NCBI GenBank assembly: GCA_022564195.1
Contig: JADFLW010000006.1
Coordinates: forward strand, 2,474 to 66,473
Direction of reading: 5' to 3'
Origin: Patescibacteria group bacterium
Lineage (GTDB): Bacteria > Patescibacteriota > Microgenomatia > UBA1400 > Chisholmbacteraceae
Length of the DNA: 64,000 nt
A model generated the notes under the pieces. The model was not told the DNA's origin. It searched no databases and saw only the letters and a program-made list of their open reading frames with translations. This document shows, piece after piece, positions 4,933 through 53,926 of the stretch. A program made the translations under genes and the position numbers. Position 1 is the first letter of the stretch, and each line of letters begins with the position of its first letter.

Positions 4933-5043
4933 TTCTTTAACAGTTCAAGTAAGTGAGTGCCCGCGGAGCACAACTCCTCGGCTTCAATTGTTACTAGCCC
5001 GACAGAACGCCAGACCTCTTCTCTTTGTATAATCGCTCTTAAG

Positions 5044-5541: not shown

Positions 5542-5642
5542 GATCCTCCGCTTTCAAAGACGCAAAAATCCGCGAAAACATGCGAAATCGGTGGAAACAA
5601 GCGCTTTACGAGTTGTCTGAATTGGTTTGATAGAATCAAGCT

Positions 5643-12784: not shown

Positions 12785-14575
12785 CTAGTGCGAAAGCTTG
12801 GAAGACAGCTCACTAAACTCCTGCCGTAGCGTATCAAACCGTTGCTGCTCTGCATCAGTGGGCTTCCGCTTCTCCTCAAGAACGCCAATCTTCGAAGAGA
12901 GCGAAGCAAGCTGCTCTCGCAACCGAAGCTGACGAAGCTCATGAACAACCTGCTCAACTTCCTGGATCAATCTATCGGGGGTGGAAGGGATATCAGAAAT
13001 ATCGTGTAAAAACGCTGTTTGAGCCAAGGAATGGAGCTCAGCGGGAAGCGATGCGATAAATGAGCCAGCCTCAAAAGAATCTCCTGCTTTCGCTAAAGCG
13101 CTCCGGACGATGCGCCGAACCGCGGGATGGACAAGATCAGAAGCTTCAAAGTCATCAAGGGACGAAATCGCCTGGGTTCCGCCTTGGAGCATGAGGCTTA
13201 AGAGATATTCCTCAAGCAGCAATCGCCGGTCCTTCTTCTCTTCTTCTCCTGAAACAGGAGGTTGGGGCAACACACCCCCTTCCCCCAAGGCGGCAGTGCG
13301 TTCAAAACGAGCCACCTCATCCATCACCGCCTCTTCGGAAACATCCAGTAAACGAGCCAGTTTTTGAATGTAATGCGCCCGTTCCACGGCGTTGGAAATC
13401 TTTGAAAGCAAAGGAACAAGCTCTTCAGAGATCTGTTTTTTACCCAGTCCACTCGCCACATCAAAGCGCTGACGAGCACTTTTAATGTAAAAATCATAGA
13501 CACTTGTCGCCCGATCAACCAGCTGATGCCATTTCTTCGGATTATCTTGGGCTACTGCATCCGGGTCTTTCCCTCCTGAAAGCAGAGCAACTTTAATGTT
13601 CAGTAAAGCGGAATCGGCAATAGCTATCCCTCTTTTCGTAGCCGCATCTCCAGCCGCATCCGCGTCCAGCGCCAAGATAACATTGCGGGTATAGCGACGA
13701 AGCAATTCAACCTGCTCGCTCGTAAGCGAAGTCCCCTTCACCGCAACCACGTGTTTCACCCCTGCCTGCCACGACGAAATCGCATCAAGCTCACCTTCAA
13801 CTACGACGACCTGATCCTTCTTTTTAATTGCGGATCGATTCTCATGCAGCCCATAAAGGTGCTTGCTCTTATGGTAAAGAACGGTCTCCGGAGAATTGAT
13901 GTATTTTGCTCTCTCCTCTTCTCTCCCAGGAAGGATGCGCCCCGCAAATCCCACCACGTTCCCCCGCACATCCCGAAGCGGGAAAATCACCCGATTGCGA
14001 AACCGGTCATAGTTCCTTTTCTTGCCTTTCACCACTAACCCTGCCTCTAAAAGCTCCTCGAGTTTATAGCGCTTCTTGCCCACGAGAAAGCGGATAAGCC
14101 CATCCCAACTATTAGGGGCAAAGCCAAGCTTGAACATTTGGGTGGCTGGCTTGCGAATCCCGCGCTCAGAAAGATAGCGCTTCGCCCGCTGACCAACCGT
14201 ATGGGTGACAAGAAGGTAGTGAAAATACTCTGAAGCCAAATGGTTGACCTCCCAAAGCCGCTCCTTTTTTTTATAATCGCGACCCTTACGAAGCGGCTCA
14301 AGCCGCACCCCAGCGCGTTTCGCCAAGTATGAAAGCGCCTCTGGAAACTCCATCCCATCGAATTCGTTAAGAAAGGTAAACGCATCGCCAGCCTTTTCGC
14401 AACCAAAACACTTGAAAATGCCAAGCTCCGGCGAAACCATAAAAGACGGTGTTCGCTCGCTGTGGAACGGACACAAAGCCCTGAAGTTTCTGCCGGCCCG
14501 CACCAGCTTCACCCGCTCCCCAATAAGCGTAACGATATCCGTTTTTTGTTTGACTTCCTCAACCTGATCAGCCAT
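12785..14575 (-). CDS. dnaG: DNA primase DnaG
   Basis: CHC2 zinc finger CPFHSERTPSFMVSPELGIFKCFGC and a TOPRIM region (VVVEGELDAI). Classic dnaG-rpoD operon order. Confidence 0.95.
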   Translation of the reverse strand: MADQVEEVKQKTDIVTLIGERVKLVRAGRNFRALCPFHSERTPSFMVSPELGIFKCFGCEKAGDAFTFLNEFDGMEFPEALSYLAKRAGVRLEPLRKGRDYKKKERLWEVNHLASEYFHYLLVTHTVGQRAKRYLSERGIRKPATQMFKLGFAPNSWDGLIRFLVGKKRYKLEELLEAGLVVKGKKRNYDRFRNRVIFPLRDVRGNVVGFAGRILPGREEERAKYINSPETVLYHKSKHLYGLHENRSAIKKKDQVVVVEGELDAISSWQAGVKHVVAVKGTSLTSEQVELLRRYTRNVILALDADAAGDAATKRGIAIADSALLNIKVALLSGGKDPDAVAQDNPKKWHQLVDRATSVYDFYIKSARQRFDVASGLGKKQISEELVPLLSKISNAVERAHYIQKLARLLDVSEEAVMDEVARFERTAALGEGGVLPQPPVSGEEEKKDRRLLLEEYLLSLMLQGGTQAISSLDDFEASDLVHPAVRRIVRSALAKAGDSFEAGSFIASLPAELHSLAQTAFLHDISDIPSTPDRLIQEVEQVVHELRQLRLREQLASLSSKIGVLEEKRKPTDAEQQRFDTLRQEFSELSSKLSH

Positions 14576-15487: not shown

Positions 15488-15533
15488 GACGCTAGACGCT
15501 AGACGCTAGACGCTAGACGCTAGACGCTAGACG
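15488..15533. repeat. heptanucleotide microsatellite (GACGCTA) x 6.6
   Basis: Perfect tandem copies. It overlaps the last six codons (KRLASSV) and stop of the NUDIX gene. Confidence 0.9.
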
Positions 15534-16058
15534 TTTAGCTATTCTATCATGAGCCTGTCGAAGGGCCTCCCTCTCCCCTTCAAACGCCAGCCGCTCCATT
15601 GCCTCTTCATACGGCAACCAAACAGCCTCCTCCATCTCCCAATCATGATCCTTCACATCTCCACTCTCATATTCCATCAGAAAAAAAGACACAACCTTAA
15701 AAACCTTGATCTTGCCTCCCCCTGCTTCTTGATACTTCGCAACTCTTCTCCGCGGCTTCACCTCATCAGATTGTTCGTAATCGTATCCCTCATCCGGCTT
15801 TTTGAGATCCGCCCAATACACATACTGCACTCGGTGAATAGGACGCTCAGACAACAACCCAACTTTCACTCCCATCTCTTCCTCAACCTCCCGCACCGCC
15901 GTCTCAAACCCCCGCTCCCCTTTCTCAATGAGTCCCTTCGGCAACACCCATTTGTGATACCCGCTATGCTTTCCAATTAACCACACCACTTTCCCTCGCT
16001 GGTACTTGTAGACTAGCCCGCCTGCTGAAAATTCTCTTTTGAATGACGATTTGGCCAT
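15513..16058 (-). CDS. NUDIX hydrolase
   Basis: Nudix box GLIEKGERGFETAVREVEEEMGV. Confidence 0.85.
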   Translation of the reverse strand: MAKSSFKREFSAGGLVYKYQRGKVVWLIGKHSGYHKWVLPKGLIEKGERGFETAVREVEEEMGVKVGLLSERPIHRVQYVYWADLKKPDEGYDYEQSDEVKPRRRVAKYQEAGGGKIKVFKVVSFFLMEYESGDVKDHDWEMEEAVWLPYEEAMERLAFEGEREALRQAHDRIAKRLASSV

Positions 16059-17654: not shown

Positions 17655-18434
17655 CTACCACCTGCTGCGAGCAAAGGTATATCCCCACACCTTACAAGCC
17701 CCATTTCGCTTCAAAACCTTCGCACACTCCACCATCGTCGCCCCGCTTGTCCACACATCATCCACCAGCAATAACTTTGAATTTTTAACTTTGAACTTTG
17801 AATTGATTGTGAATGCTCCCCGCATCTCCTGCCCGCGAACCCGCGTTTTCTTTTCAGCCAAAAGCTTTCGTCTCGCTATCCTCCGTTGCGTCAGCGACAG
17901 GTAACGCTGTCGAAGTTCCCGATCATCCGAAGCAGAGACTCTCACGTTAAGCTCAGATAACGATCTTGTGTTCTTTATCCGCGTAAGCGCCTGCACAAAT
18001 CGCAAGTCCAACTCCTGCGCGAAAAGTTCGCCCAAAAGCGCGGCTTGATTGAAGCCTCGCCAACGTTCTCTGGATTGATGCAGTGGCACCGGCACGACAA
18101 GAAAGCGTTCCCGCCGGAGAAAAGTCAAAAACGCAGGATCGACGCGCGCTGTCGCCATCTCAACGAAGGTAAGGCCCATCTCACGGACGAATCGGAACTT
18201 TAAGCGCTTTACGGCTTCCTGGATGCCATCTTGATAGAAAAATAGACCAACCAACCCGTCTAAGCCAAATGGCCTTCTGCAACGGGCATGGCTCATACCG
18301 CCGATCGATCCCTTGCTACATATGGGACAAATCGGTGTAGCAAGCGAAAACCGTAAAATACAAGACTCACAAAAGTAGACCCCCAGCTTTCTACACCCCA
18401 CACACGTCTTCGGGAACAAAAGATCCAGCAACAT
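17655..18434 (-). CDS. comF: ComF family protein (competence; phosphoribosyltransferase-like domain)
   Basis: N-terminal Cys4 zinc-finger-like CVGC...CESC...CPIC, and C-terminal PRTase motif LLLVDDVWTSGATM. Confidence 0.8.
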   Translation of the reverse strand: MLLDLLFPKTCVGCRKLGVYFCESCILRFSLATPICPICSKGSIGGMSHARCRRPFGLDGLVGLFFYQDGIQEAVKRLKFRFVREMGLTFVEMATARVDPAFLTFLRRERFLVVPVPLHQSRERWRGFNQAALLGELFAQELDLRFVQALTRIKNTRSLSELNVRVSASDDRELRQRYLSLTQRRIARRKLLAEKKTRVRGQEMRGAFTINSKFKVKNSKLLLVDDVWTSGATMVECAKVLKRNGACKVWGYTFARSRW

Positions 18435-24318: not shown

Positions 24319-24507
24319 CTCCTCTCAGAGAATCAGAATCTACAAAAAATCCAGCAATTCGCAGTGTAGCAATGTAACCATTGAGCAATGGGACAATGAT
24401 TCAATGACGCTATACCCTTATTCCCGAAACGCTCGTCCTGAGCTCTGTCGAAGGGCTAAACGCCTATATTGTCCTCTTCCCTACTTCTCTGCTACACTCA
24501 ATATAGG

Positions 24508-25280: not shown

Positions 25281-25667
25281 ATGCTTCTAGTGATGGGCCC
25301 CATCAATGTCGAAAGGGGGATATCTCTGCTCGCAGCCGCCTTCTGTGTTCCTTGGGGTGGAGGATGGTACTGCTCCTCAGCTCCGGAAGGTTTTGGCAGT
25401 GGAACGGGTGACGTCTCCAGCCTTGGCGCCATCCTCATAAGCCTCATGGACTACGTCTTCGTCATCGCCGGAATCATTCTTCTTTTCATGATCATCGCCT
25501 CCGGCTACACCCTGCTCACCTCAGCAGGAAACCCCGAAGCCATCGCCAAAGGCAAAAGCCGCTTGACCGCAGCCCTCATCGGATTCATCATCGTCTTCGC
25601 CGCGTTCTGGATCTTCCAAATTATCGAACTGCTCCTGGGGGGTGTAGGGACCGTCTTCACGCCGTAA
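25281..25667 (+). CDS. TrbC/VirB2-like pilin (paralog 2)
   Basis: LTSAGNPEAIAKGKSRLTAALIGFIIVFAAFWIFQII flanked by hydrophobic helices. Confidence 0.6.
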   Translation: MLLVMGPINVERGISLLAAAFCVPWGGGWYCSSAPEGFGSGTGDVSSLGAILISLMDYVFVIAGIILLFMIIASGYTLLTSAGNPEAIAKGKSRLTAALIGFIIVFAAFWIFQIIELLLGGVGTVFTP

Positions 25668-25674: not shown

Positions 25675-26388
25675 TTATCGACCAAATCTCCGTTGTCTGC
25701 TTTGATATTCCGCAATAGCTTTATCAAACTCTTTCGGCGTAAAATCCGGCCAGTACGTGTCTGTAAAATACAATTCAGTGTACGCAATCTGCCACAACAT
25801 AAACCCTGAAAGCCGAAACTCCCCACCCGTCCGAATCAACAAATCCGGATCCGGCTGCCCCGCAGTATCCAAGAACTGAGCAAAGCTTTGCTCAGTTAAA
25901 TTTCGAATTTCGAATTTCGAATTTCGAATTTCTCCTGCGAGTGTCACAATAGCTCGCAGGAGCTCGTCCCTTCCTCCATAGCTCAAGGCAATATTCACCG
26001 TGATCGCGGAGTTATGTTTCGTCTTCTCAATCCACGCCTTGGTCTTTTCCTGAATGTCGTTGGGGAACATCGAAACATTACCAATAACGTTTATCTTCAC
26101 ATTCTTCCGATGAAAACTCTCAACCTTTTTCGATAAATTATCTCGAAAAATATTCAACAAAAACCCAACCTCCCGCTTCGTTCTCTTCCAATTCTCTGTG
26201 GAGAACGCCCAAAACGTAAGATAGCCAATCCCAAGCTCAATCGCCCGATCAACAATCGGCTCAATCCGCTCCTCACCCGCAAGATGCCCCTTCAAAGGGA
26301 AAAATCCTCGCTTTCTTGCCCATCTTCTGTTGCCATCCATGATGAGCGCCACATGCTGCGGAATGTTTGACGAATCTACGCGACCCAT
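25675..26388 (-). CDS. uppS: undecaprenyl diphosphate synthase (isoprenyl transferase) UppS
   Basis: HVALIMDGNRRWA...YLTFWAFSTENWKR...RTGGEFRLSGFMLWQIAYTELYFTD. Start at ATG 26388. Confidence 0.9.
   Translation of the reverse strand: MGRVDSSNIPQHVALIMDGNRRWARKRGFFPLKGHLAGEERIEPIVDRAIELGIGYLTFWAFSTENWKRTKREVGFLLNIFRDNLSKKVESFHRKNVKINVIGNVSMFPNDIQEKTKAWIEKTKHNSAITVNIALSYGGRDELLRAIVTLAGEIRNSKFEIRNLTEQSFAQFLDTAGQPDPDLLIRTGGEFRLSGFMLWQIAYTELYFTDTYWPDFTPKEFDKAIAEYQSRQRRFGR
25900..25932. repeat. heptanucleotide repeat (ATTTCGA) x 4.7 inside the uppS coding sequence, preceded by a perfect 20-bp palindrome (25876-25895)
   Basis: Encodes EIRNSKFEIRN in a variable loop of UppS. Palindrome ctgagcaaagctttgctcag. 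Confidence 0.9.
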
Positions 26389-26420: not shown

Positions 26421-27227
26421 TCACTTCTCCACCCTCGTTCCGAATACCCGCTTACCCCGCACCGCCTCCGACAAGCTTCCGTTGACAATCCCATCAATAA
26501 TAAGGCTCGGAACTCCACGTTTCGCCAGTGAAAGCGCCTCCTCAACCTTATGCGCCATTCCCCCCGTCACATCCACGCCACCCGATCCTCCCAACACTCC
26601 TTGGTACCGTTTGTAGTTTTTGCCGTTAATAAGCCGCACTGTCGTCCCATTCTCGTCATAAACGCCGTTGGTCAGTCCACAATGAATGATACGCTCAACA
26701 ACAAAACCCTTTTCCTGAAGGTGAAGCGCCAAGTAGCCCAACACTTTCTCCGTCGAGAAAACAGTACAGCCCAGCTTGACATCCATGATCTGATCCCCGT
26801 AGACAACCGGTAGAAGCCCAAGTCGTAAAAGCTCCTCTACGCTGTCCGTGCAGATGGACTTGATCCTGTGATTCTCAGCAACCATGATGCTCAACGGGCT
26901 TATCGAAACCGCATTCACGCGCTTTGCAAGAAGTGTCTTAATAACAATCCGATTAAGCTGGGCCGCCACGTCCGCAACCTCAGCAATTCCCCGATAACTC
27001 TCGCTATTGATAAGGCCTTTATGGGTCTGGTACTTTTTTGCCGGAAAATGTGCAAAAGAACCTGCTCCGTGCCCAACGATAAGATGCTTCCCCAGCTTTA
27101 ACGATTTCTTAATCTCTTGGCAGACCAGCAGTAAGGCTTTCTCTCTAATTGAGAATGGTTTGTTCTTATTGGTGATGAGGGAACCGCCAATTTTGACAAG
27201 GACGATCGGTGGTCTCGAATGTTTCAT
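26421..27227 (-). CDS. isopentenyl phosphate kinase (amino-acid-kinase fold)
   Basis: VLVKIGGSLITNK...VGHGAGSFAH glycine-rich kinase motifs, about 270 aa. ATG 27227 overlaps the upstream stop (ATGA). Confidence 0.6.
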   Translation of the reverse strand: MKHSRPPIVLVKIGGSLITNKNKPFSIREKALLLVCQEIKKSLKLGKHLIVGHGAGSFAHFPAKKYQTHKGLINSESYRGIAEVADVAAQLNRIVIKTLLAKRVNAVSISPLSIMVAENHRIKSICTDSVEELLRLGLLPVVYGDQIMDVKLGCTVFSTEKVLGYLALHLQEKGFVVERIIHCGLTNGVYDENGTTVRLINGKNYKRYQGVLGGSGGVDVTGGMAHKVEEALSLAKRGVPSLIIDGIVNGSLSEAVRGKRVFGTRVEK

Positions 27228-27535
27228 GCTGCCTCCGCGAACGAGTCGCGGCTCTTCTGCGCAAAGACCGGATCTTCCCAAAACCCCGCACCGCCGCTCA
27301 CGCCATTAAACCTCATATTTCTGGTGTTTGGAAAATAAACAGTTTCTCCCCCAATGTGTCCTTCAAGTTTATGTCCGTCAGGATCCCGGCGCAGGAAGAC
27401 TCTGCTCTCCTGGCCTAAAACAACCACCTGAATACCCCAGAATCGCGCTGCTTCCTGCTCAACCTCACTCCCCCGTTCCATGAATGAATCGTAAGTAAGA
27501 AGTGCTGAATTGGGGCGCTCAAAGTGAACGGCCAT
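27224..27535 (-). CDS. small glyoxalase/VOC-like protein (tentative)
   Basis: VFLRRDPDGHKLE resembles the VOC C-terminal beta-strand motif. Short; translationally coupled to IPK. Confidence 0.35.
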   Translation of the reverse strand: MAVHFERPNSALLTYDSFMERGSEVEQEAARFWGIQVVVLGQESRVFLRRDPDGHKLEGHIGGETVYFPNTRNMRFNGVSGGAGFWEDPVFAQKSRDSFAEAA

Positions 27536-28172: not shown

Positions 28173-28613
28173 TTACAGCTTTCTCTTCTTCATCTCATCT
28201 GGCAAGGCTCGGTAAACCGTCGTTTCTGACACACCAGCTAGTTGGGCTTGCTGTCTACGAGTGGCATTCGGGAATACTTCTATCACCTCCAGCACCCTGC
28301 CCCGATCTGCCTTAGGCGCTCCCGGTCCGTTCTTTAACTCCGCATCGAGCACTCCAGCATTCACCGCCGCTCTCACTACCCGTGCCACTGATTGGGGCGA
28401 ATAATACACACCTTCTTGCATGCTCGCCCGATCACAACTTCGGGTCTCCTTATAAGCTTCTAGAACGCGTCCAACGTGCTCCACTGCAGCTTCGGGAACA
28501 TTTGCCTGCTGGGCGAGCTCTTCGATCGAAGCATCAAGAAATGTGCTCATCACCTCCAAAACAGACTGGGTTTCACAAGAGATATTAGGCTCGAAACGCA
28601 GCGTCTCTACCAT
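28173..28613 (-). CDS. hypothetical protein with C-terminal helix-turn-helix
   Basis: PNATRRQQAQLAGVSETTVYRAL is HTH-like. No SD sequence; the start is preceded by an aaccctaac motif. Confidence 0.45.
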   Translation of the reverse strand: MVETLRFEPNISCETQSVLEVMSTFLDASIEELAQQANVPEAAVEHVGRVLEAYKETRSCDRASMQEGVYYSPQSVARVVRAAVNAGVLDAELKNGPGAPKADRGRVLEVIEVFPNATRRQQAQLAGVSETTVYRALPDEMKKRKL

Positions 28614-28710
28614 AAATCGAGGAGACAGTTAGGGTTACAGTATTAGAGTCGTAAAAACTGGGAAAAATCCTTCGACGGGTACCGGCCGGTACCTGACCAG
28701 CCCCACCCCC

Positions 28711-29923: not shown

Positions 29924-29988
29924 TCTCCCTAAACCCTAGACCCTATACACTAAACCCTGTTTTTAAACTGTGCTACACTTTACAAAGA

Positions 29989-32418: not shown

Positions 32419-32835
32419 ATGGAAAACAGCAGTGGAAACTGGCAAGAGAGGCTTCGCCTCTGGATCAAAAAGCAGTTCTCACACTTGATTGCTGCTTTTG
32501 CTGTGATCATAGGATTCCTCGGCAATCCTATCAAAGCATACGCTGCGTTAGTCGGCGAAGAGCCAACGGAATTCTCCGCTTTAGAACCAATTGTCGAAAA
32601 TCTTATTAAAGCCGCCGTCCCAATCGCGGGTGTCGTGCTGTTTGGGATGCTGGTCTTCGGCGGCATCCAATACCTCACAAGCGGCGGTGATCCCGAAGGC
32701 ATGCAGAAAGCCAAAAGCACCCTCACCTACGCCATCATCGGCATCGTGCTTCTGGTTCTAACTTGGTTCGTGCTTCTATTTATCAAAACATTCACTGGTG
32801 TAGACGTCACCACCTTCACCATCCCCTCCCCATAA
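32419..32835 (+). CDS. TrbC/VirB2-like pilin (paralog 9)
   Basis: LTSGGDPEGMQKAKSTLTYAIIGIVLLVLTWFVLLF. Confidence 0.55.
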   Translation: MENSSGNWQERLRLWIKKQFSHLIAAFAVIIGFLGNPIKAYAALVGEEPTEFSALEPIVENLIKAAVPIAGVVLFGMLVFGGIQYLTSGGDPEGMQKAKSTLTYAIIGIVLLVLTWFVLLFIKTFTGVDVTTFTIPSP

Positions 32836-32895
32836 ACACAAAACGCTAAACCCTCTACCCTATTGCCTGATTCTTGTGCTACTATTATTTTTGAA

Positions 32896-34633: not shown

Positions 34634-35644
34634 ATGAATAAAAAATTATCAAAACTACTACTGGTACCAGCTCTAGTCATTGCCTCAGTGCTGCTGTTCC
34701 ATGCCCCAGCAGCACAAGCCCAAGACTTCAGCGTCTTTTACAACGCCTGCACCGTCGGTCCCATCTGCGACCTCTGTGAGCAGTACTACTCCCCCGGCGA
34801 CTATGTGTTGGACGATGTCATCAGTTTCCCCGCAGAAGAGGAAAAGATCATCCCCCATCCCTATTATGAGGAATACAAAGACTTCACTTGTAAAGCCGAC
34901 GAGTGCTTAGTCGGCGTCTCCGACACCACGTATTGTGTCTCACCGACTGACGATGAGATACCAGCAATACGCCTTTGTACTGCGATCACACTCCCCAATT
35001 GCAATCTCAACGAGTGTCAAGACAGTCCGTCCAGCTCTCCCTATTGCGATATCGGCGCCGTAAGATTCTGCGACTCCAGCATATACGCACTCGGAGGTTG
35101 GCATTTCTGCACAACGTCGGGCTGGGACCCCACCGCCGTCGGTGGGACGAGTGGCGACTGCATTGCCGAGCCACCCCACCCAATCATGGGTTGCGATAAC
35201 GGAACCGTGGGCGTACCAGGTTCCGGCAATTGGATTGACCTTCCATCAAGGCCGAATGAACAGGGCCGCTGTGAAGAAATGCTCGAGGAGATACGGGTCG
35301 CCTTCACCCCAGGCTATGTCAAAACCTACACGCCATATCTTTTTGATATCTGGCAAAACACCGTCAAGCACACCGCGGCCATCTTCACACTCTTCCGCAC
35401 CCAAATCGGCGCCGAGATCTTCGACTGGCCTGGGGAATCAACCATCGCCTACGACTTCACCAACGATCTTGCCGAAGCCGGCTTTCCACCGACGATCCGG
35501 CCCGGATGGGATGCTAAAATCTACTTCCGCTATTTGGGTTACATCCACTGCGCCAAGGAAAATCTCCTACAAAAGCTCTCCTCCAGACTTGCAGACACGC
35601 CATACGTCTACTACGACGCCCGCTGCGATGCAGAACTTTGGTGA
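34634..35644 (+). CDS. secreted Cys-rich hypothetical protein
   Basis: Signal peptide ...APAAQA, about 24 cysteines, no recognisable catalytic motif. Confidence 0.5.
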   Translation: MNKKLSKLLLVPALVIASVLLFHAPAAQAQDFSVFYNACTVGPICDLCEQYYSPGDYVLDDVISFPAEEEKIIPHPYYEEYKDFTCKADECLVGVSDTTYCVSPTDDEIPAIRLCTAITLPNCNLNECQDSPSSSPYCDIGAVRFCDSSIYALGGWHFCTTSGWDPTAVGGTSGDCIAEPPHPIMGCDNGTVGVPGSGNWIDLPSRPNEQGRCEEMLEEIRVAFTPGYVKTYTPYLFDIWQNTVKHTAAIFTLFRTQIGAEIFDWPGESTIAYDFTNDLAEAGFPPTIRPGWDAKIYFRYLGYIHCAKENLLQKLSSRLADTPYVYYDARCDAELW

Positions 35645-35654
35645 TACATCTCAA

Positions 35655-35984
35655 ATGTCAAAACGCAAAAGTCAAAACCACAACTCAAATGTAAAAACCG
35701 ATCTCAAAATTAGATCCTACCAATTCTCTCTGAGAATCATCAGGCTAGTAAGTAGGCTTCCAAGCACAAGAATTTTCTGGGTAATAGGAGACCAATTACT
35801 TAGAAACAGCACCAGCATAGGCGCAAATATCGTAGAAACAAAATCCTCAAGCTCCAAAAAAGAATTCATTAAGTTTTACGAAATATCCCTGAAGAGCACG
35901 AACGAAACAAAGTATTGGCTCTGCCTCCTTCGGGACTCTAATCTTGAAGGCATAGATCAAAAAACAGTAAAGGAAGCTCTATAG
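35655..35984 (+). CDS. four-helix-bundle protein (23S rRNA intervening-sequence protein family)
   Basis: YQFSLRIIRLVSRLP...RNSTSIGANIVE...YEISLKSTNETKYWLCLLRDSNL matches the IVS-protein pattern (SIPSNIAEG-like, LLAKRLGY-like). Only the 3' 109 codons of track ORF 35142-35984 are taken as real. Confidence 0.55.
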   Translation: MSKRKSQNHNSNVKTDLKIRSYQFSLRIIRLVSRLPSTRIFWVIGDQLLRNSTSIGANIVETKSSSSKKEFIKFYEISLKSTNETKYWLCLLRDSNLEGIDQKTVKEAL

Positions 35985-36104
35985 GAAGCGGTTGAGATCA
36001 ACAACATGTTAGGTTCTAGTCTGTTAACGATGAAAGGAAAAAGATAGTTCTCTGGATTTTAGTTGTAGTTTTGAGACTTGAGATTTGAGTTTTGACTTTT
36101 AATT

Positions 36105-37611: not shown

Positions 37612-40600
37612 CTACTCCTGCTGAAGATATGGACCCAACTCGTCAAGAAACGGTTTCATGATGAGCGTCCAAACCCCGATTGGTAAGGCAATGGGCCCGT
37701 ACTCTACAGCCAGCGAGGCAGCAACATGTCCTGCTCTTGCCCGATGCTTTCTCAGAAGCTTTCCCGCCTTCTCATTTCCAATAATCGGTCGCAGTTGATT
37801 AACGAACTGGAAAATCTCCAGCTTTGTCATACTCAACGCTTTGCCACCGAACTTGAGTTGCGCTTTTGAAGACATCGTCCAAGGTTTCCATATATTAATC
37901 GGCCCACCCCAATCCGCAATAAAACCACCGGGAAACCAATTCGCCCACCACTTAGCTTGATAAAGATTCTTCAATATCGTATCGGCTTTTGCGGCAATCA
38001 ATTTCTCCCTTTCAAATCCTGCCAGATGTTGGGCAGCTCCATAAAGCTCGGTAAACTGCTTGAACAGTTCTCCCTGGGAAGCCACAACCCGATCCTCAGG
38101 AGCAAATAATCCATTATCAATGTGTGTCATGACTCGGTCTGTGTTTTGTGCAAACTCAGCATCTCCGCCGATCCTTCTCGACACACCCCTCGGCCCTATC
38201 TTCCACCATTCAGCCTCCTCGTGTACCAAATCCTCCATGAAAGGCAAAAAGCTAAAATCAACTCCAGCCATTCTCTCCGCCCCTGTCTTAGCCCCGCCTT
38301 TACTCTTAGCTCCAAGGTGCGTCAGCCGCTCAACAACCTTTATCTCTTGATCAGAAAAACTCAATCCCAACTCATCCTCTCTCACTAGCTCAAGGACGCT
38401 CTTCTTGTAGTGCTTCTCACGATCTTCTGGTGATAAACCCTCTTTTTGATACCCATCGCTCTTGACATAATCCCGAAGTGCTTTTTCTTCATACACAGTC
38501 AGCTTCGAATGGAGCTCCTTCCATTGTTCAAAAACTTTTTCTTCCCAACCTTCTTTTTCCGTGTCAACAACGAATTGTTCAGCCAGCATCCAGGTGAAAC
38601 TCGCCTCCGCGCCCACCTGAAGCATGAGTTCCTTTTTCCTCTGCTCCATTCGTTTGTCGATTTCTCTATCCTTATCGCGCTTCTTGTCCTTAACGAACTT
38701 CGATTCTATGTCGGTTTTGACATCCTTCTCAATCACTTCCCAAATCTCTTCATCCTCAATCTTTTCCTTAACTTTCTTCTTGACGTAATCACACAAACCA
38801 TCCACATCTTGAACCACCGCGCCTCCCTCTCTGCCTTTTAACCTACTTCTAAGATCAAAGTAATCGTCTCTGCTTGCGTCTTTCCCTAGGGCTTCGAGTG
38901 AAAGCGTTGGAAAATATCTTGAGATGACTGTCGGCATCCGCTTCCCAACTTTCTCCCAAATATCTGCTTTTAGTGAATCTTCTATCGTGTCTTTATCCCA
39001 CTTCTTAATCCCTAACCTTTTCATGATTTTCATCTTCTCGCTCTTATCCTTACGACCCCTCCTCATCAACCTCTTCGCCTCATCTCCCATGTCATAGAGC
39101 TGCACACCCAATGCCACCCCCCGACTCCGTTGTTTCTCAGTTGCAACAACCGATCTCCAGTGAGACCCACTCAAAGGCCCCCCATACTTGACGTAATTCT
39201 CAACATTAATCCCCCACTCATCAAGTGGATCGCCTGGTATTTTTTCATGCACACCACTTTGAACAAACTGATTGAGTCTATCCAGCCAAGGCTTTCCCCC
39301 TTCTCTTCCTCGTCCCCAAGTCTCAAATCGCTCAGGACCTAAGCGCAAAAGTCGAAGCGGAACCTTATCAAATGGATAGCTCATATAGAGCTCGCCCATC
39401 TTCTGCGGGGCAAGTTGGGTCTGCGCTACATGTTCGGCGCTGCGCAGTAGAACATTGGACATCTTCATCGCCAATGCCGCCACCCGACGCGCCTCTTTTT
39501 CTCTTTCAGCTCCTTCACCTCCCAATTCCAACACTCCCTTGTCAGACATCGCCAGCAAGCCCTCAGCAACAATCTGCTCAATTTCCGGAGGCCTATAACC
39601 CCCATGAGAACTCGGTATAAGAAAGTCAATAGGGATCCGCCCTTTATATTGAGGATCCATACGAACCTGAGCCAAAATCCGCTCAACTATTCCGAGCGCC
39701 GGGGACAGTGTAGGCTCCATGATCGACATGGTATCCAAGTCCTCAGAAAGCAAAAGCTTTCCAGAAACTCCTTTGAGTTCTTCAGGATCTCCGCCCCTGA
39801 TGAGCTCAGAATTCAAAAAACTGAAAACCCGTCGCGTCCATAGCAGGTTTTCGTATCTCCGCTTCTCATCTACTCCCGTCGGGCCTGCATCACGAAGTTT
39901 TTTCATTAATGTCGAAAACAGAATATGTCCCCAACTCTCCATCCGAAAGCCTTCGCGCGGGTCGCTCTCGGCATCTCCGATAATTTCTTCAAACAGGGGT
40001 TTAATGAAATGCGTGCGTAATCTTTCTCGAAAATCCTCCATGCTCTCTTTATCGATCGGCTTGCTCTGTAATTGTTGAATTTCAGAGACCAGCTGATCCC
40101 TCATAGAGCTAGAGGCAAACTGAACCTCTTTCCCTTGGATATTGAAAACAACATTTTCTTCGTCCAGAGTGCTTTGATCCACCAATTGCTGTAACCCTTC
40201 TTCATCAAGAGTCAGCACCTGAAAAACACCCGCCTCTTCAACATCCAATATGTGGTAGTAAATCTCTTTCGTTTCCAATCCGTACATCCTTCCGAGATAA
40301 TCAGCAATCTCCCTCTCATTTTCCGTGATGTGAGAAAGTGAAAATTCTATCCCACGCAACTCTTTATTCCCCTGTTCCCACTCTTCCATAAGCTGCTTAA
40401 CCAGCTTCTCACTACCGGCGTCATCTGCCTCATCGAGGTTATTCGAAATCTGCTGCAGTTTATCTTCTGCCTTCTGCCGCAGGGCTTCAAACCTTTTTAC
40501 TTGTCTGTCCATGCTCTCACGCTCGTCTCCTATATCTCCCGCAGGAGAAGCCCCTGCTAGTCCTTCCAACATCGCTGTCTTTTTAGCCGCTATTTCCTCA

Positions 40601-41172
40601 GGGCTCTTGCCAGCCTCTTCAAGTTTTTTCACCCGCTCATCCACCTCCGCCTCATGCACAGCTCGTTCAAGTCGTGTTTCTTCTTCTTTAGTAAAATCAA
40701 GCCCTGTAAACATCCACTTGAGTATTGCCTCTGGAGTATCATGGCCGGCTTCCTTAGCCGCCTTGATCAACTCCGCAAACTCCCCTTCTTCGTCTTCGAA
40801 GATCTCTTTAATCTGCTTCCAGAGATACTTTAGAAGCGCGAGAAGCAACTCAAGGATAGAGGCTTTTTCCTCCTCATCAACTTTCTTTCCCTGCTCCTTC
40901 TTCTTGAGTAATTCAAGAAGCTTTTTGAGGTTTGTATCTGCTATTTTAAGCTCCCCGGGCTTCAATTGAGCCTGCTCCAGTGCCGCCTGAAACAGTTCCC
41001 CCCGACTTTTTGCTCCCTTATCAACATCCTTTGCATCCTTTTTCGCTTCATAAACCGTCTTTTTCTCCTTCGGTCGCTCTGCCTTTTTTTTCTCAGCCCG
41101 ACGCTCACTGGAAGGTTTTTTTGCCTTCTCTTCTTTCGGTTTTTTGGTTGGTTCTCCCTCGTGTTCATTCAT
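37612..41172 (-). CDS. 1186-aa hypothetical protein, K/E-rich N-terminus, extensive coiled coils, no recognisable catalytic motifs
   Basis: Long uninterrupted ORF on the opposite strand inside the T4SS-like locus. No Walker or relaxase motifs seen. Confidence 0.6.
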   Translation of the reverse strand: MNEHEGEPTKKPKEEKAKKPSSERRAEKKKAERPKEKKTVYEAKKDAKDVDKGAKSRGELFQAALEQAQLKPGELKIADTNLKKLLELLKKKEQGKKVDEEEKASILELLLALLKYLWKQIKEIFEDEEGEFAELIKAAKEAGHDTPEAILKWMFTGLDFTKEEETRLERAVHEAEVDERVKKLEEAGKSPEEIAAKKTAMLEGLAGASPAGDIGDERESMDRQVKRFEALRQKAEDKLQQISNNLDEADDAGSEKLVKQLMEEWEQGNKELRGIEFSLSHITENEREIADYLGRMYGLETKEIYYHILDVEEAGVFQVLTLDEEGLQQLVDQSTLDEENVVFNIQGKEVQFASSSMRDQLVSEIQQLQSKPIDKESMEDFRERLRTHFIKPLFEEIIGDAESDPREGFRMESWGHILFSTLMKKLRDAGPTGVDEKRRYENLLWTRRVFSFLNSELIRGGDPEELKGVSGKLLLSEDLDTMSIMEPTLSPALGIVERILAQVRMDPQYKGRIPIDFLIPSSHGGYRPPEIEQIVAEGLLAMSDKGVLELGGEGAEREKEARRVAALAMKMSNVLLRSAEHVAQTQLAPQKMGELYMSYPFDKVPLRLLRLGPERFETWGRGREGGKPWLDRLNQFVQSGVHEKIPGDPLDEWGINVENYVKYGGPLSGSHWRSVVATEKQRSRGVALGVQLYDMGDEAKRLMRRGRKDKSEKMKIMKRLGIKKWDKDTIEDSLKADIWEKVGKRMPTVISRYFPTLSLEALGKDASRDDYFDLRSRLKGREGGAVVQDVDGLCDYVKKKVKEKIEDEEIWEVIEKDVKTDIESKFVKDKKRDKDREIDKRMEQRKKELMLQVGAEASFTWMLAEQFVVDTEKEGWEEKVFEQWKELHSKLTVYEEKALRDYVKSDGYQKEGLSPEDREKHYKKSVLELVREDELGLSFSDQEIKVVERLTHLGAKSKGGAKTGAERMAGVDFSFLPFMEDLVHEEAEWWKIGPRGVSRRIGGDAEFAQNTDRVMTHIDNGLFAPEDRVVASQGELFKQFTELYGAAQHLAGFEREKLIAAKADTILKNLYQAKWWANWFPGGFIADWGGPINIWKPWTMSSKAQLKFGGKALSMTKLEIFQFVNQLRPIIGNEKAGKLLRKHRARAGHVAASLAVEYGPIALPIGVWTLIMKPFLDELGPYLQQE

Positions 41173-41387
41173 AGTTCTGCGCTATTCCCTAATTCTTAAT
41201 TCATAATTCTTGTTTCCTGCCTCAATCCTACAACAAAACCCTCAACCCCGCACCACAACCTTTGACTTCTACTCGGGCTCAAATTGTACCATAAAATCCT
41301 AAAAGGGTCAACCACTAATATGTACCCCTAAGTTTAAGGCCTAGCGTCTGAGGAAAAATGAAACTCAAACACTTTTCACGCAATGCG

Positions 41388-41690
41388 TCACGCCACAGCC
41401 GCCTTCCGCTTTCGAGGTCGTCCACCACGCTTTCCATACTCTCTGGGGCTTTTGAGGAAAGACTTATACTTCTCAACTGCTCTTCCCGTCGTTAACCACC
41501 GCCACGGATAACCACGACCATCTTTGCGCACCTTCCAACCCTTAACACGTCCGGTGTTCAACAGACGACGAATCCTGTGCGTAGAAAGCCCAACGCGCTT
41601 TGCAACTTCCGAAATTGGAAGAACCCCTCGCTCCTTCTCAGACTTCTTTGCAATCTCCGGTGGTCGTGGTGCATACTCCCCTTCTACCAT
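41388..41690 (-). CDS. excisionase/AlpA-family helix-turn-helix DNA-binding protein
   Basis: LPISEVAKRVGLSTHRIRRLLNTGRVKGWKV...W matches the Xis-type HTH pattern. Basic C-terminal tail. Confidence 0.5.
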   Translation of the reverse strand: MVEGEYAPRPPEIAKKSEKERGVLPISEVAKRVGLSTHRIRRLLNTGRVKGWKVRKDGRGYPWRWLTTGRAVEKYKSFLKSPREYGKRGGRPRKRKAAVA

Positions 41691-41837
41691 ACCCGAAGTA
41701 TACCAAACACTTTCTACCCCACCCTAAACCCTAGACCCCAGACCCTCATGAATGCTATTATGGCCTCAACAATCTGTCGTTGAATCTTGGAGCTTTAATT
41801 TTGAACTTTTCACTCTGAACTTTTAATCGGTGTTCCC

Positions 41838-44678
41838 ATGCCCGACGAGCCGCAAGCACCAGACGTTCCTGAAACACCTCAGCCAGAACAACCCACGCCC
41901 CCCGATGGTGGAGAAGAACTACCTCCCGAAAAGCCCATCGACACCTACGAAGGCCTCCGTGACGACCTCAAAACCCAACTGGAAGGCCAGTATCAGGAAA
42001 AGATGCAGGGGTTTCTCCATCCAGAACCCAACCCGCAGCTTGCTTCTAGCGCCGCCAACATCGTTTCCCAACACGCCATCAGATACCTCCCTGCAGAAGG
42101 GGAGGTCTCTCCAGAACACCTCTCCCAGGCAATCACTGCCGCCCAAACCGATCTTGCCGACAGAAGGCTCTGGTACCAAGCCATTCTCCCAAAAGAGCCC
42201 ATACGAATCGATATCGCCAAATCCATCGCTTCAAGATACACTCCTGAAAAGCTAGTCGGCCGCAGGCTCACAAAGACAAGCAATGCCTTAAGAACCGCGG
42301 CGGATGACTACAGAAACAGGGTTGAACAAACTCGCGTGCAACTTCCGAAGCGCGAGGATTTGCTTCCCGCAATCCAATCAGAGCTCCAGAAATCAGGAAT
42401 CACTGATAAAAAACTCTACACGAAGCAGGCGGTAAAAATAGCCAGTGATCTGGATAAATGGACCTTCAGCTACCAGGCCGCCCCGCCCCAAGAAGTCATT
42501 CAAACCGCCGTTCAAAGACGTGCCGGAAAACACGTTGAGGATACCCAGGGCCTTGCAACGCGGCTGTCGGAAAACACCACGGTCTCCAAGCACTACGAGG
42601 CGGGCGCCCAGCATCACCATCTCGTCGCTCACGGGCTCACCAAGACAATCAACAAAGCCGCCTCCAGTCGTCTCGTCCGAGGAGCAAGGAAGCTTACAAA
42701 GGCAGCCGACATCATCAGACGCCCCCTCACCTACGCCGGAAGGGCAGCCACCTTCCCGGTGCGGTTTGCCGTCCGAAAAGTCACCCGCCCAATCGGAAGA
42801 GTGGTCAAAAGAGGAGTCCGACGAGTAGCCATCGGAGCTGCCCGATTGGCAGCCAAGGTCCTGGTGAAAGTCGGCCTCGGCGGACTGGTCAAAAACATCG
42901 AGCGAGTCGCCCTTGCCAGCACCGGCGTGGGCATTCCCCTCCTCATCGCCCAAGAAGCCGCCTTGTTTGGAATAGGACAACTTTTTAAAGCCAAAAAATC
43001 GCTTCAGGAGAGCTGGCAAAAGGCATATCAGTCGCGCAATGTCGGCGAAGCGCTGATCAACAACATCGGTGCCTCGATCGACACAGTCGGTGCCGGCATA
43101 GGCGGGATCGTTGGTGGCGTTGCCGGAACAGGCGTGGGAGCCATAGGTGGTGCCATCATCGGCTCGCTACTGGGACCGGTCGGCACCATCATCGGAGGAG
43201 TGCTCGGTGGAGTAGCTGGTGGCCTCTTTGGCGCAGGTGTTGGTGCCAACGCCGGAGCAAGACTGCGCAAAAACCTCAAGCGCATGATTGCCATTCGGCT
43301 CTTCCTCAAACTCCTTTGGGCCAAGATAGCAGGGCTCATAAAGGCAGCTGCCTTCACACTTGGTGGTGCGCTTACTGGTGCAGTCATCGGCTTCGCAGTG
43401 GGAGGGCCCGTTGGTGCCCTTGTGGGAGGTATTATTGGTGGAACTGCCGGATATCTGCTGCCCAAAGCAGCCACCAGCGCCAGACAGCTCGTCTACATCG
43501 CCAGGCACTACGCTTTTATCGAAGGCCCAATCGCCCAAGTCTTCAAAGGAATCGGCAATCTCCTTGCAAAAATCCCTTCAGGCATCGCGAGAGCTTTCAA
43601 CGCCGCCACCGGCTGGATCGGAGGAACCACCACCTCTGCAACCGCAACGGCCGAAGCGGTTGCCACCGGAATCACCACCGCTGGCCCCGGAACCGCACTC
43701 GCCCTCACGCCAGTTGCTACCATCGCCACGGTGGGGCTATTTGCCTTCATCACCTACTCGGTTTTGATCACCGCCTTCTTCGTCCCCCCAACCGAAGTCA
43801 CCCCGTTCTTTGAAATTCCATCGCGCTTCATCAAAATCACCAAAACCGCCTGCGCCACCTCAGCGGGTGGGGAGACCTTCTGTGACGTCAATGGCCAGCT
43901 TGTCCTTGAAAATCCCACCGCCGAAGGCCCCTATGACATCGTCTATCAGATCATAGTTGAGGCCGTGGATCAGACCTTAACCAACGTTGCCATTGAAGAT
44001 ACCTATACGGCATTCGGCGAAAACGATCCGACCCCGCCAGCTCCACTATCATGGAACGGCACAATCACCATCGGCTCCGGAGACCCTTGGAGTGAGACCG
44101 TCAATCTCACCATCCCCAGATCCAGCAGCTGGGATGACTCTCTCCTCATCAACACCGTCACGGTCACAGCCTTCCTCACAGGCACGACAGAGCCCATCGT
44201 CAATTCCAATTCGGTAAACATCATCTTTGGAAACCCTCCCTTCTGCCCGCCCAGCGGCGATCCGTTAGCCACCCCCTACGGTTGGATTCGGGGCTTCACT
44301 CCTGGCTTCCACACCGGAGTTGACGTAAAAGGCTCGCCCGCAATCGGCGCCACCATCTCCTCCACCTTCCCCTGCCGAGCCATCGTCCGCCACGCCGGCC
44401 TCGACACCTACGACAGGGGGCAGTTTGGCTTCTACGTTGCGCTCCAATCCGGCCCCTGGTTCGCCTTCTATTCCCACATGAACGCTACGCCCTATGTCAA
44501 CGAAGGTGATATCGTCGGCGGTGGCACTGCGCTCGGCCCCCAAGGGTCGTCGGGAAACTCCTCAGGTCCACACCTACACTACGAAATCCGAGAAGGGACA
44601 AGCGTCAATCCAAAAGTAAACTGGCAGCCGACGTTGGCCAAAGACCCCTGTAATTTCGGCGTCACCGCCTGCCCATGA
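41838..44678 (+). CDS. 946-aa protein with C-terminal M23 (LytM) metallopeptidase domain and central glycine-zipper membrane region
   Basis: M23 motifs HTGVDV ... HAG ... AFYSHMNA ... GSSGNSSGPHLHYEI. Central run of GxxxG repeats (GAGIGGIVGGVAGTGVGAIGGAIIGSLLG...). Proline-rich N-terminus. Confidence 0.75.
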   Translation: MPDEPQAPDVPETPQPEQPTPPDGGEELPPEKPIDTYEGLRDDLKTQLEGQYQEKMQGFLHPEPNPQLASSAANIVSQHAIRYLPAEGEVSPEHLSQAITAAQTDLADRRLWYQAILPKEPIRIDIAKSIASRYTPEKLVGRRLTKTSNALRTAADDYRNRVEQTRVQLPKREDLLPAIQSELQKSGITDKKLYTKQAVKIASDLDKWTFSYQAAPPQEVIQTAVQRRAGKHVEDTQGLATRLSENTTVSKHYEAGAQHHHLVAHGLTKTINKAASSRLVRGARKLTKAADIIRRPLTYAGRAATFPVRFAVRKVTRPIGRVVKRGVRRVAIGAARLAAKVLVKVGLGGLVKNIERVALASTGVGIPLLIAQEAALFGIGQLFKAKKSLQESWQKAYQSRNVGEALINNIGASIDTVGAGIGGIVGGVAGTGVGAIGGAIIGSLLGPVGTIIGGVLGGVAGGLFGAGVGANAGARLRKNLKRMIAIRLFLKLLWAKIAGLIKAAAFTLGGALTGAVIGFAVGGPVGALVGGIIGGTAGYLLPKAATSARQLVYIARHYAFIEGPIAQVFKGIGNLLAKIPSGIARAFNAATGWIGGTTTSATATAEAVATGITTAGPGTALALTPVATIATVGLFAFITYSVLITAFFVPPTEVTPFFEIPSRFIKITKTACATSAGGETFCDVNGQLVLENPTAEGPYDIVYQIIVEAVDQTLTNVAIEDTYTAFGENDPTPPAPLSWNGTITIGSGDPWSETVNLTIPRSSSWDDSLLINTVTVTAFLTGTTEPIVNSNSVNIIFGNPPFCPPSGDPLATPYGWIRGFTPGFHTGVDVKGSPAIGATISSTFPCRAIVRHAGLDTYDRGQFGFYVALQSGPWFAFYSHMNATPYVNEGDIVGGGTALGPQGSSGNSSGPHLHYEIREGTSVNPKVNWQPTLAKDPCNFGVTACP

Positions 44679-45783: not shown

Positions 45784-45927
45784 AAAGCAGTACCTAGCCC
45801 TAGCCCTGTCCTCTGCTCCCCTGTTATAATGACCGCGATAGCAATTTGTCCCTTTTGAAACTCGCGAAGCACGAGGAAACAAGAATTCTTACTAAACCCT
45901 ATACCCTAAACGCTAAACGCTAATTTA

Positions 45928-51115: not shown

Positions 51116-51361
51116 AGACCTCCACTACTTACTATTTACTATATATAATACTTTAGCAGTACTAGTAGTAGGAAGTGAGGAAAAGTTAAAAACCCTCCCC
51201 CTTCTTCCAAGAAACCGTAAGATACTGCCTGTGTAAAATCTCCAAGTTTCTGTGGATAACTCTGTGGATAAGTAGCATGAACTTGTGAATAAGTGAATAT
51301 GTTCTGATGGGTTGTTAAGAATTCAACAAAACTCTCCTAAATATACACAAATCGGAACAAC
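51116..51361. promoter_or_regulatory. oriC: chromosomal replication origin (oriC): AT-rich unwinding element plus DnaA boxes
   Basis: Two perfect TGTGGATAA boxes (51251-51259, 51263-51271) and TGTGAATAA (51284-51292). AT-rich tactatttactatatataatac (51131-51155). Lies between dnaA and dnaN. Confidence 0.75.
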
Positions 51362-52741: not shown

Positions 52742-52965
52742 GGTGTATACGGGCAGGAGACGATGCCTTTATCTGGGTTGAAGACGTCGATAGCGAACAG
52801 ATCTTTGCAAGTTTTCCACAACGAGTCAACCCACAAATTCCCCAAAACAAAGCCCCACGACGATGGCGCGATGGATGCTCACAGCGCAATAATGGAATGA
52901 ACTTTCTCAGACAGGTCAAATCATGCTAAAATAACAATTAAATCTTAAATCTCAAATCGTAATTC

Positions 52966-53654: not shown

Positions 53655-53869
53655 AAAAGCTGGTCCTCAGCCTCATTCGCCTCTATCAACACGTAGTGCC
53701 ACTCCGCATCGCGAGAGGAGCCTGTCGGTTCCAACCGACCTGTTCTCAGTACGTATATGAGGCCATAAAGAGGTATGGTATAGTAAAGGGCGTTTTTCTT
53801 GGAACAAAAAGAATAGCAAGATGCCACCCATGGTCCAAAGGAGGCGTCGACCCCATCCCCAGCCTCTAA
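53651..53869 (+). CDS. yidD: membrane protein insertion efficiency factor YidD
   Basis: LIRLYQHVVPLRIARGACRFQPTCSQYVYEAIKRYG is the YidD signature. Start overlaps the rnpA stop. Confidence 0.85.
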   Translation: MKKLVLSLIRLYQHVVPLRIARGACRFQPTCSQYVYEAIKRYGIVKGVFLGTKRIARCHPWSKGGVDPIPSL

Positions 53870-53926
53870 ACCCTAAACGCTATACCTTGATACCCTAAAC
53901 CCTAAGAAGCTAAAAACCCTATTCCT

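Follow-up and report, generated by a model that had tools for sequence, protein, structure and literature searches.

Short heptanucleotide arrays before genes of a Patescibacteria bacterium, probably made by replication slippage

Tandem heptamers in intergenic spacers

The DNA analysed here, a 64,000-nucleotide (nt) stretch of a Patescibacteria group bacterium (assembly GCA_022564195.1, contig JADFLW010000006.1; hereafter the window), has on its plus strand a degenerate heptamer, C[CGA]CTA[AGT]A, that is repeated in tandem to form short arrays. One of them occupies a 65-bp divergent spacer between a gene for an extracytoplasmic function (ECF) sigma factor (ATG 29923, minus strand) and the first type IV secretion system (T4SS)-pilin gene (ATG 29989). 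Arrays are named by their first position, and their coordinates are collected in Table 1. Pfam matches in the window were to T4SS_pilin, PrgI, Peptidase_M23, DUF4012, YidC and RNase H. The nearest named relatives of its YidC are Candidatus Chisholmbacteria (64–70% identity), and the same species is present in four public assemblies at 99.5–99.9% identity to the window. Because dnaN, dnaA, two TGTGGATAA boxes and rpmH-rnpA-yidD-yidC all lie within it, with dnaA, dnaN and the DnaA boxes at 50–52.7 kb, the window represents a chromosomal origin region and no replicon end.

The exact word CCCTAAA was not enriched in the window (8 found, 9.07 expected), and all eight copies lay on the plus strand. 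Pairs of the C[CGA]CTA core at exact 7-nt spacing numbered 16 on the plus strand and none on the minus strand, whereas dinucleotide shuffles (n = 300) averaged 0.35 and gave 3 at the most; five of the 16 come from the (CGCTAGA)6.6 array at 15488. Mismatch-tolerant autocorrelation of the window revealed nine regions at lag 7 compared with zero or one at each of the other lags from 4 to 13, and seven of the nine fell in the non-coding part, which makes up roughly 10% of the sequence. Tandem Repeats Finder (TRF) flagged the arrays at 29927, 41721, 45892 and 53866 with period 7 (3.7–5.6 copies, 76–88% match) and that at 58499 with period 8/16. Other period-7 units in the TRF list were GACGCTA, AACTTTG, TTCGTGC, AATTTCG, TGAATAA, CTCAAAA, AGTTTTG, TAATTCT, ACTATTT and TTAAATC. 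Across 835 kb from relatives (87 loci centred on YidC homologues), period 7 accounted for 54 arrays and periods 6, 8, 9 and 12 for 10–13 each; 35 of the 48 unique arrays lay outside long open reading frames (ORFs) and 13 inside. With tandem 7-nt copies, an excess of period 7 and a mostly intergenic location, the arrays are a family of bacterial heptanucleotide simple-sequence repeats. A search of the window with Rfam 15 brought only tRNAs and the transfer-messenger RNA to the gathering score, and in the regions 41150–41860 and 58950–59420 Rfam returned nothing credible.

The initial annotation had described arrays of telomere-like heptamer motifs at seven plus-strand sites, together with a reverse-complement copy at 28626–28636. 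Five of these sites hold clear arrays (29927, 32841, 41722, 45893 and 53866), the site at 58499 repeats with a different period, 24456 is marginal, and the minus-strand site holds just one copy of AACCCTAAC. Nor do the arrays form one motif element: CCCTAAA/CCCTATA/CGCTAAA is the dominant unit family among many period-7 arrays in this genome. Several arrays overlap the ends of genes, namely the yidD and NUDIX stop codons and the starts of the RNase H gene and of the gene at 34634, which points to growth in place rather than insertion. Spread by a mobile element or with shared flanks was rejected, as the arrays have no common flanking sequence.

Promoters, start codons and initiation regions

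Gene starts were taken from the gene calls of public same-species assemblies, which place the starts of the array genes at 24508, 29989, 32896, 41838, 45928, 53927 and 58509; TTG 24469, GTG 29970 and TTG 32863, assigned earlier, belong to over-long ORFs and lie upstream of these calls. Measured from the assembly starts, the initial statement that the arrays abut the start codon holds for three of the seven genes (PrgI-like, yidC and RNase H), and the other four arrays end 29–90 nt upstream. Between each of these four (24456, 29927, 32841 and 41722) and its ATG stands an extended −10 box, TGnTAnnnT (at 24490, 29971, 32877 and 41753), which places the array at about −20 to −60 of a promoter and not within a 5′ untranslated region (UTR). 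Promoter association, initially judged unlikely, is therefore the better description of these four, and the idea of a 5′-UTR element survives for the PrgI-like, yidC and RNase H arrays, which occupy the place of a ribosome-binding site.

At three array genes with a box between array and ATG, the extended −10 box stands 9–10 nt before the ATG. In the window as a whole, TGnTAnnnT ends 6–14 nt before the start (mode 9) at seven genes, against 0.5 expected (Poisson P ~1e-6), and three of these seven are array genes. A −10 box close to the start is a signature from which leaderless mRNAs are deduced (PMC3160421). The spacing suggests that genes with an extended −10 box 9–10 nt before the ATG have leaderless mRNAs, and the count over the window implies that such transcripts occur commonly in this candidate-phyla-radiation genome. 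Neither the consensus promoter scan nor the terminator scan of the window exceeded its shuffles. Genes with a close TGnTAnnnT include 12785–14575, 17655–18434, 24508, 29989, 32896 and 56516.

The absence of a Shine-Dalgarno sequence before the array genes, noted at the outset, was confirmed. The arrays are C/A/T-rich with almost no G and offer no purine-rich, anti-CCUCC stretch 5–10 nt before the start, as judged against the canonical anti-Shine-Dalgarno only (the 16S rRNA gene lies outside the window). A Shine-Dalgarno-like motif precedes only about 29% of the window genes and occurs in 12 of 63 distinct yidC leaders from the wider clade. Predicted folding of the region from −40 to +30 gave 0.0 kcal/mol for yidC and −1.9 kcal/mol for both RNase H and PrgI-like, compared with a median of −8.8 kcal/mol for 63 genes, and all three rank within the four least structured of that set. 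Such low predicted structure at array-abutted starts agrees with the published view (PMC5397173) that low structure near the start is what genes lacking a Shine-Dalgarno sequence depend on.

Table 1. Repeat arrays and −10 boxes of the window; distances are counted from the end of the array.
Feature	Position	Strand	Units or sequence	Setting
Heptamer array, 4.6 units, C[CA]CTA[AGT]A	29927–29959	+	CCCTAAA CCCTAGA CCCTATA CACTAAA CCCTG	11 nt to extended −10 box, 29 nt to ATG
Extended −10 box, leaderless-type promoter	29971–29979	+	TGCTACACT	9 nt before ATG 29989
Heptamer array	32841–32862	+	CGCTAAA CCCTCTA CCCTA	begins directly after stop codon of pilin gene 32419–32835; 14 nt to −10 box, 33 nt to ATG
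−10 box	32877–32885	+	TGCTACTAT	ATG 32896
Heptamer array, 3.7 units	41722–41747	+	CCCTAAA CCCTAGA CCCCAGA CCCTC	before M23 peptidase gene; extended −10 box 5 nt downstream, 90 nt to ATG
Extended −10 box	41753–41761	+	TGCTATTAT	M23 peptidase ATG 41838
C-rich tract	45793–45821	+	CCTAGCC CTAGCCC TGTCCTC TGCTCCCC	directly upstream of PrgI-operon −10 box
PrgI-like promoter	45822–45830	+	TGTTATAAT	~90-nt leader with the 45893 array at its 3′ end
Heptamer array, 4.6 units	45893–45924	+	TAAA CCCTATA CCCTAAA CGCTAAA CGCTAAT	before PrgI-like gene; 3 nt to ATG
Degenerate heptamer array, about six units	53866–53921	+		before yidC; occupies entire 57-nt yidD–yidC spacer, first unit holding yidD stop TAA (53867–53869); 5 nt to ATG
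Array, 8/16-nt period, not 7	58499–58541	+	CTAAAACCCTATGAC x 2.8	at RNase H gene; holds its ATG (58509)
Marginal remnant, barely two degenerate units	24456–24468	+	CTAAACG CCTATA	39 nt to ATG
Extended −10 box	24490–24498	+	TGCTACACT	21 nt downstream of the 24456 remnant; ATG 24508
Lone copy, no array	28626–28636	−	AACCCTAAC	leader of gene 28173–28613
Perfect array, = (CGCTAGA)n	15488–15533	+	(GACGCTA)6.6	between NUDIX stop codon and tRNA-Ser
Heptamer array	52938–52962	+	(TTAAATC)3.6	rpmH leader; ends 4 nt before ATG 52967
−10 box, rpmH	52924–52932	+	TGCTAAAAT	upstream of (TTAAATC)3.6
Heptamer array	41190–41211	−	(AGAATTA)3	about 17 nt upstream of ATG of 1186-aa gene 37612–41172
Heptamer array	36055–36100	+	(AGTTTTG)n	kept in L133 and L135
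Heptamer array	25899–25932	+	(AATTTCG)4.9	inside UppS gene; codes loop EIRNSKFEIRN
Array like (AATTTCG)n	17773–17802			inside ComF-like gene; codes loop

Strains, relatives and other phyla

Strains of the same species differ at one heptamer array. The perfect array at 15488 is reduced to a single copy in L011 by a 42-nt indel, between strains that are 99.9% identical, and thus shows rapid expansion or contraction. Several other strain differences were observed: a 30-nt in-frame indel in a pilin gene (25435–25464); a 20-nt indel in a uridylate-kinase-like gene (AA_kinase; 26421–27281) that is called as two overlapping pieces; and a ~620-bp insertion (4934–5553) with an ORF of 194 aa (4957–5541), possibly a small mobile or accessory gene, that is missing in L010 and L011. 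The TraC-like gene carries a perfect coding tandem repeat of a 21-nt unit (CACCAGAAGCTCAACCGAGCC x 4.9; 47895–47996), with two units fewer in L001 and three fewer in L002.

In the syntenic loci L004, L005, L007 and L133–L136, most orthologous sites lack CCCTAAA arrays and carry other heptamers instead, so that the unit turns over at a constant position. In L007, yidC is preceded by (TTAAACA)n, and PrgI and a TraC-like gene by TTTTCAT/AACTTTT; in L005, CTATTCC precedes PrgI and ACTTTTC precedes rnpA; and in L133 (CCATTAG)4 abuts a pilin ATG, with CATTAGA before the M23 gene. An array stands just before yidC in at least eight lineages, with a different unit in each; heptamers found there include TTAAACA, AACTTTT, CCATTAA, AAATTGA, TAAATCT and CCTAAAT. 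In more distantly related genomes the orthologous spacers contain either different units or no array at all. C-rich tracts lie at the same place before PrgI in L004, L005, L007 and L134 as in the window. The closest relative, L136, in which the 336-aa protein of 34634–35644 is 80% identical, keeps the 32841 array with its promoter, and the 60-nt spacer that contains this array is 95% identical, compared with 71–85% at third codon positions of neighbouring genes. In L134 the pilin promoter keeps CTAAACC 17 nt before its TGCTACACT box, and box and spacing are identical to those of the 29971 promoter.

Among the unique arrays of relatives, 19 of 48 end within 20 nt of a co-oriented start, 17 of these 19 within 14 nt. 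Ends 0–14 nt before the start codon are frequent in relatives, matching the published proposal for TAACTGA repeats (PMC4679880). A test for preference of the start side over an upstream stop was compromised, as yidD and rpmH fall under the ORF threshold and many arrays fill their spacer; because the arrays mostly fill short spacers, a start-side preference is inseparable from plain filling.

CCCTAAA-type arrays are not confined to this lineage. A pattern scan of GTDB genomes, which shows distribution and not a genome-wide count for this organism, found them in intergenic DNA of at least 120 contigs from many phyla; contrary to the initial view, their occurrence in a bacterium is not unexpected. 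The matches listed include Bacteroidota, many candidate-phyla-radiation groups, Omnitrophota, Cyanobacteria, Methylomirabilota and others; among them, most are internal arrays of 23–50 nt outside long ORFs, and some are eukaryote-like telomere arrays at contig ends. Orientation to the downstream gene was even among the matches listed (45 co-oriented, 46 opposed), and a general orientation rule for CCCTAAA arrays was rejected on this count. Among the candidate-phyla-radiation matches, L016 and L055 have the architecture seen in the window (array, TGnTAnnnT, 7–8 nt, ATG), and in L098 and L110 the arrays end 2 and 6 nt before the ATG, the gene in L110 being rplP. Inverted pairs, a G-rich arm followed 10–40 nt later by a C-rich arm, were often observed among the arrays of the candidate-phyla-radiation contigs L031, L049, L055, L093, L098, L110 and L125, one such CCCTAAA-type pair lying between rpsC and rplP of a Saccharibacteria genome; these pairs could form long hairpins.

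Further features were noted in the window. The 58499 array codes the variable N-terminal tail of RNase H (MTLKPYDTKTL), which precedes the conserved IYCDGGARGNPG. The last unit of the (AGTTTTG)n array gives TTGACT, which stands 18 nt before TAAAAT, with ATG 36129 a further 7 nt downstream, and the array has an inverted, CAAAAGT-type partner at 35650–35699. Between these inverted arrays (35650–36100) lies a degraded four-helix-bundle ORF of the 23S_rRNA_IVP type, at a site where L133 and L135 have intact IVP genes. A recurrent CCTGAGC..GTCGAAGGG element adjoins heptamer arrays at 24437–24455 (directly before the 24456 remnant), 15543–15557 and 62448–62478. In L029, a Chisholmbacteria genome, a 48-nt copy of this element (623–670, 83% identical) stands beside a CCCTAAA array; it is the only sequence in common with the window, and its site is neither orthologous nor syntenic. 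The 665 nt between the 1186-aa gene and the M23 gene (41173–41837) hold no convincing ORF or Rfam match, and a minus-strand promoter-like site occurs there at 41311–41283 (TTGACC, 17 nt, TACAAT, with TG). In the ~360-nt leader of the DUF4012/epimerase gene 59366–62359, a non-coding motif, ACCCGAAACATCATTGCT-N12-14-AATTGAGTAACATGAAAG (59240–59300), is kept at the same place in L004, L005 and L007 (YidC 64–70% identity). No Rfam match was found for this motif, which might represent a regulatory site or a leader RNA not yet characterised. The interval from dnaN to dnaA contains the two TGTGGATAA DnaA boxes (51249–51271), and cumulative GC skew no longer falls from about 54–60 kb; the origin of replication is likely in the 50–54 kb region.

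Origin of the arrays and related repeat systems

On balance we consider it probable that the arrays are slippage-made heptamers that persist at low constraint, upstream of leaderless core promoters and in Shine-Dalgarno-free leaders. They would be made and resized in place, probably by replication slippage, as a mutational habit of this Microgenomates/Chisholmbacteria-like lineage, and would survive where sequence constraint is lowest, in the spacer directly before genes. At leaderless-type genes the array stops at the core promoter and takes up the −35/upstream zone, where one unit may act as a weak −35. At Shine-Dalgarno-free leadered genes (PrgI-like, yidC, RNase H and, with another unit, rpmH) it reaches or crosses the start and supplies a leader that is poor in G and predicted to be almost unstructured, a state that would permit Shine-Dalgarno-independent initiation. 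The arrays may in this way have been co-opted as unstructured leaders or as promoter-upstream DNA, and may make a positive contribution to transcription or translation; the G-poor leaders, with their low predicted structure, are compatible with Shine-Dalgarno-independent initiation and may aid it.

Several observations weigh against this account. The CCCTAAA-type arrays show no copy-number change among three to four strains (99.5–99.9% identical). The above-neutral conservation of the 32841 spacer in L136 hints, from sequence comparison, at purifying selection rather than mere tolerance. The same unit family stands before five operons of one T4SS-like/pilus cluster, a clustering that could reflect a shared regulator. 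The start-proximal arrays are G-poor on the sense strand (14 versus 4, P = 0.03); this was rejected as independent evidence for selection, as the C>G skew of the surrounding sense strand itself reaches −0.35.

A specific cis-regulatory element, read by a dedicated DNA- or RNA-binding factor that coordinates the array genes, is rather unlikely in our judgement; candidate factors include activators or repressors of the T4SS-like pilus cluster and RNA binders of the S1, Csp or RRM type. CCCTA-type repeats do lie just upstream of the −10 boxes of five promoters (gene starts 24508, 29989, 32896, 41838 and 45928), all in one cluster, but yidC and RNase H are unrelated to it, and array position varies from overlap with the ATG to a distance of 90 nt before it, both upstream and downstream of the −10 box. 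Every multi-copy array of the CCCTAAA family is co-oriented with its downstream gene; a strict rule is weakened by the family arrays 15488 and 21850, which are antisense among minus-strand genes, and by the even split of CCCTAAA-type arrays among the matches listed from elsewhere. Units also differ among genes of one genome and among relatives at the same gene, and a 7-bp period would set successive sites on different faces of the duplex. A like idea has been put forward for TAACTGA repeats (PMC4679880), and it is mainly the conservation in L136 (32841 array) and L134 (CTAAACC) that keeps a specific regulatory or −35 role in play. Lineage-specific arrays of Microgenomates-type candidate-phyla-radiation bacteria might alternatively form a functional module, and not tolerated products of slippage, that replaces the Shine-Dalgarno sequence before selected genes (such as yidC, rpmH, rnpA, pilins and secretion genes), is read by a dedicated reader (the ribosome itself, or a protein of the S1, Csp or RRM type) and, in this genome, also serves as the upstream half of T4SS-like pilus promoters. 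The independent occurrence of heptamer arrays just before the yidC start in at least eight lineages and the above-neutral conservation of the 32841 array spacer support such a module, which we nevertheless hold to be unlikely; if real, it would have arisen convergently with the TAACTGA repeats of Beggiatoaceae.

That the promoter-proximal unit is itself a −35 element (TA[AG][AC]CC), and the arrays its tandem duplications tuning strength or registers, is improbable. The spacing is suitable at the pilin promoter of the window and L134 (TAAACC 17 nt before TACACT), at 41732–41761, where a consensus scan found TAGACC separated by 18 nt from TATTAT, before the PrgI −10 box of the window, L134 and L004 (TAGCCC at 17–18 nt), and in the (AGTTTTG)n array, which ends in TTGACT 18 nt before TAAAAT. 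A register of 16–18 nt was nonetheless seen, by eye, in about 6 of 11 promoters compared with 3 in 7 by chance, which is not significant: 29989, 41838, 45928, L134 and L055 are in register, and 32896, L016 and L093 are out of it. Three arrays have no −10 box downstream, extended −10 promoters require no −35 element, and the whole promoter scan stayed within its shuffles. Template-strand G-quadruplexes, formed by the G-rich, TTTAGGG-like complement and modulating transcription, are very improbable: the complements of 29927, 41722, 53866 and 58499 each have 4–5 GGG runs and there is precedent in the GGGAATC (Xanthomonas) and GGGGAYT (Nostoc) heptamers (PMC4692102), but 24456, 32841 and 45893 have at most two G-runs, loops would span 11–21 nt at 53866, 58499 and 29927, variant units (CGCTAAA, CACTAAA) interrupt the runs, and the units of the other heptamer families that take these positions are rich in A/T. 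With at least four GGG runs in only about four of the seven arrays, quadruplex formation was rejected as a common array property. We give equally little credence to phase-variable contingency repeats, whose copy number would switch surface or secretion genes as at hmw of Haemophilus influenzae. Phase variation by heptanucleotides is documented (PMC8262952, PMC12721329), several arrays precede pilin or secretion genes, and one heptamer array of this genome differs by six units between strains; that variable array (15488) precedes a tRNA gene and no surface gene, though, and the CCCTAAA-type arrays, which are short and imperfect, do not differ among the strains compared, with the copy number at 32841 kept in the relative whose neighbouring 336-aa protein (34634–35644) is 80% identical.

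Heptamer repeats ascribed to slippage have precedent in other bacteria. In many bacterial genomes, heptamers outnumber long simple-sequence repeats of any other unit length (Mrazek 2007, cited through PMC4679880), and the cause proposed for them is polymerase slippage (PMC4679880 on Mrazek 2007; PMC4692102). Our literature search found no description of heptamer arrays in candidate-phyla-radiation bacteria, and the present arrays extend these repeats from cyanobacteria, Xanthomonas, Beggiatoaceae and Bacteroidetes to this group. The differing units in the same spacers of relatives provide a comparative series for separating neutral slippage from functional elements and for asking why the period is 7, and the corrected starts, extended −10 leaderless-type promoters and unstructured Shine-Dalgarno-free leaders matter for gene calling and expression tools in Patescibacteria.

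Among known repeats, the plant telomere (TTTAGGG)n, to which the motif was initially likened, shares the 7-nt word only, and no link was found: the window arrays are chromosome-internal, near dnaA, dnaN and the DnaA boxes, with perfect CCCTAAA units running to two in a row at the most and CCCTATA, CCCTAGA and CGCTAAA units interspersed. The heptanucleotide repeats of Haemophilus influenzae hmw1A/hmw2A, which drive phase variation (PMC8262952, PMC12721329), likewise form a 7-bp tandem repeat between promoter and start whose copy number can slip, but those are hypervariable arrays, both long and perfect, whose effect on expression has been demonstrated, whereas the short and imperfect CCCTAAA arrays did not vary among the strains compared. 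The cyanobacterial short tandemly repeated repetitive (STRR) sequences and the G-rich heptamers of Xanthomonas (GGGAATC) and Nostoc (GGGGAYT), the latter two varying between related genomes at the same intergenic sites (Rehm 2015, PMC4692102), resemble the window arrays in period-7 excess, intergenic location, a lineage-specific unit, one G3-rich strand, variation of length and sequence at the same sites and slippage as the proposed origin; the window arrays are shorter and more degenerate, do not all have quadruplex potential, and are tied to leaderless-type promoters and Shine-Dalgarno-free starts. The TAACTGA repeats of marine Beggiatoaceae and some Cyanobacteria and Bacteroidetes, for which a translational role has been proposed (MacGregor 2015, PMC4679880), also comprise 2–6 tandem copies of a 7-nt unit at many intergenic loci, in spacers without a canonical Shine-Dalgarno sequence and before unrelated genes, including those for ribosomal proteins. 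With the unit C[CGA]CTA[AGT]A, the window arrays are an analogue and no member of that family; several unit families coexist in this genome and are replaced between relatives, over half of its CCCTAAA arrays lie upstream of a −10 box and not beside the ATG, and the host is a candidate-phyla-radiation bacterium. The closest known systems are thus the TAACTGA repeats, the cyanobacterial STRR sequences and the Xanthomonas and Nostoc heptamers.

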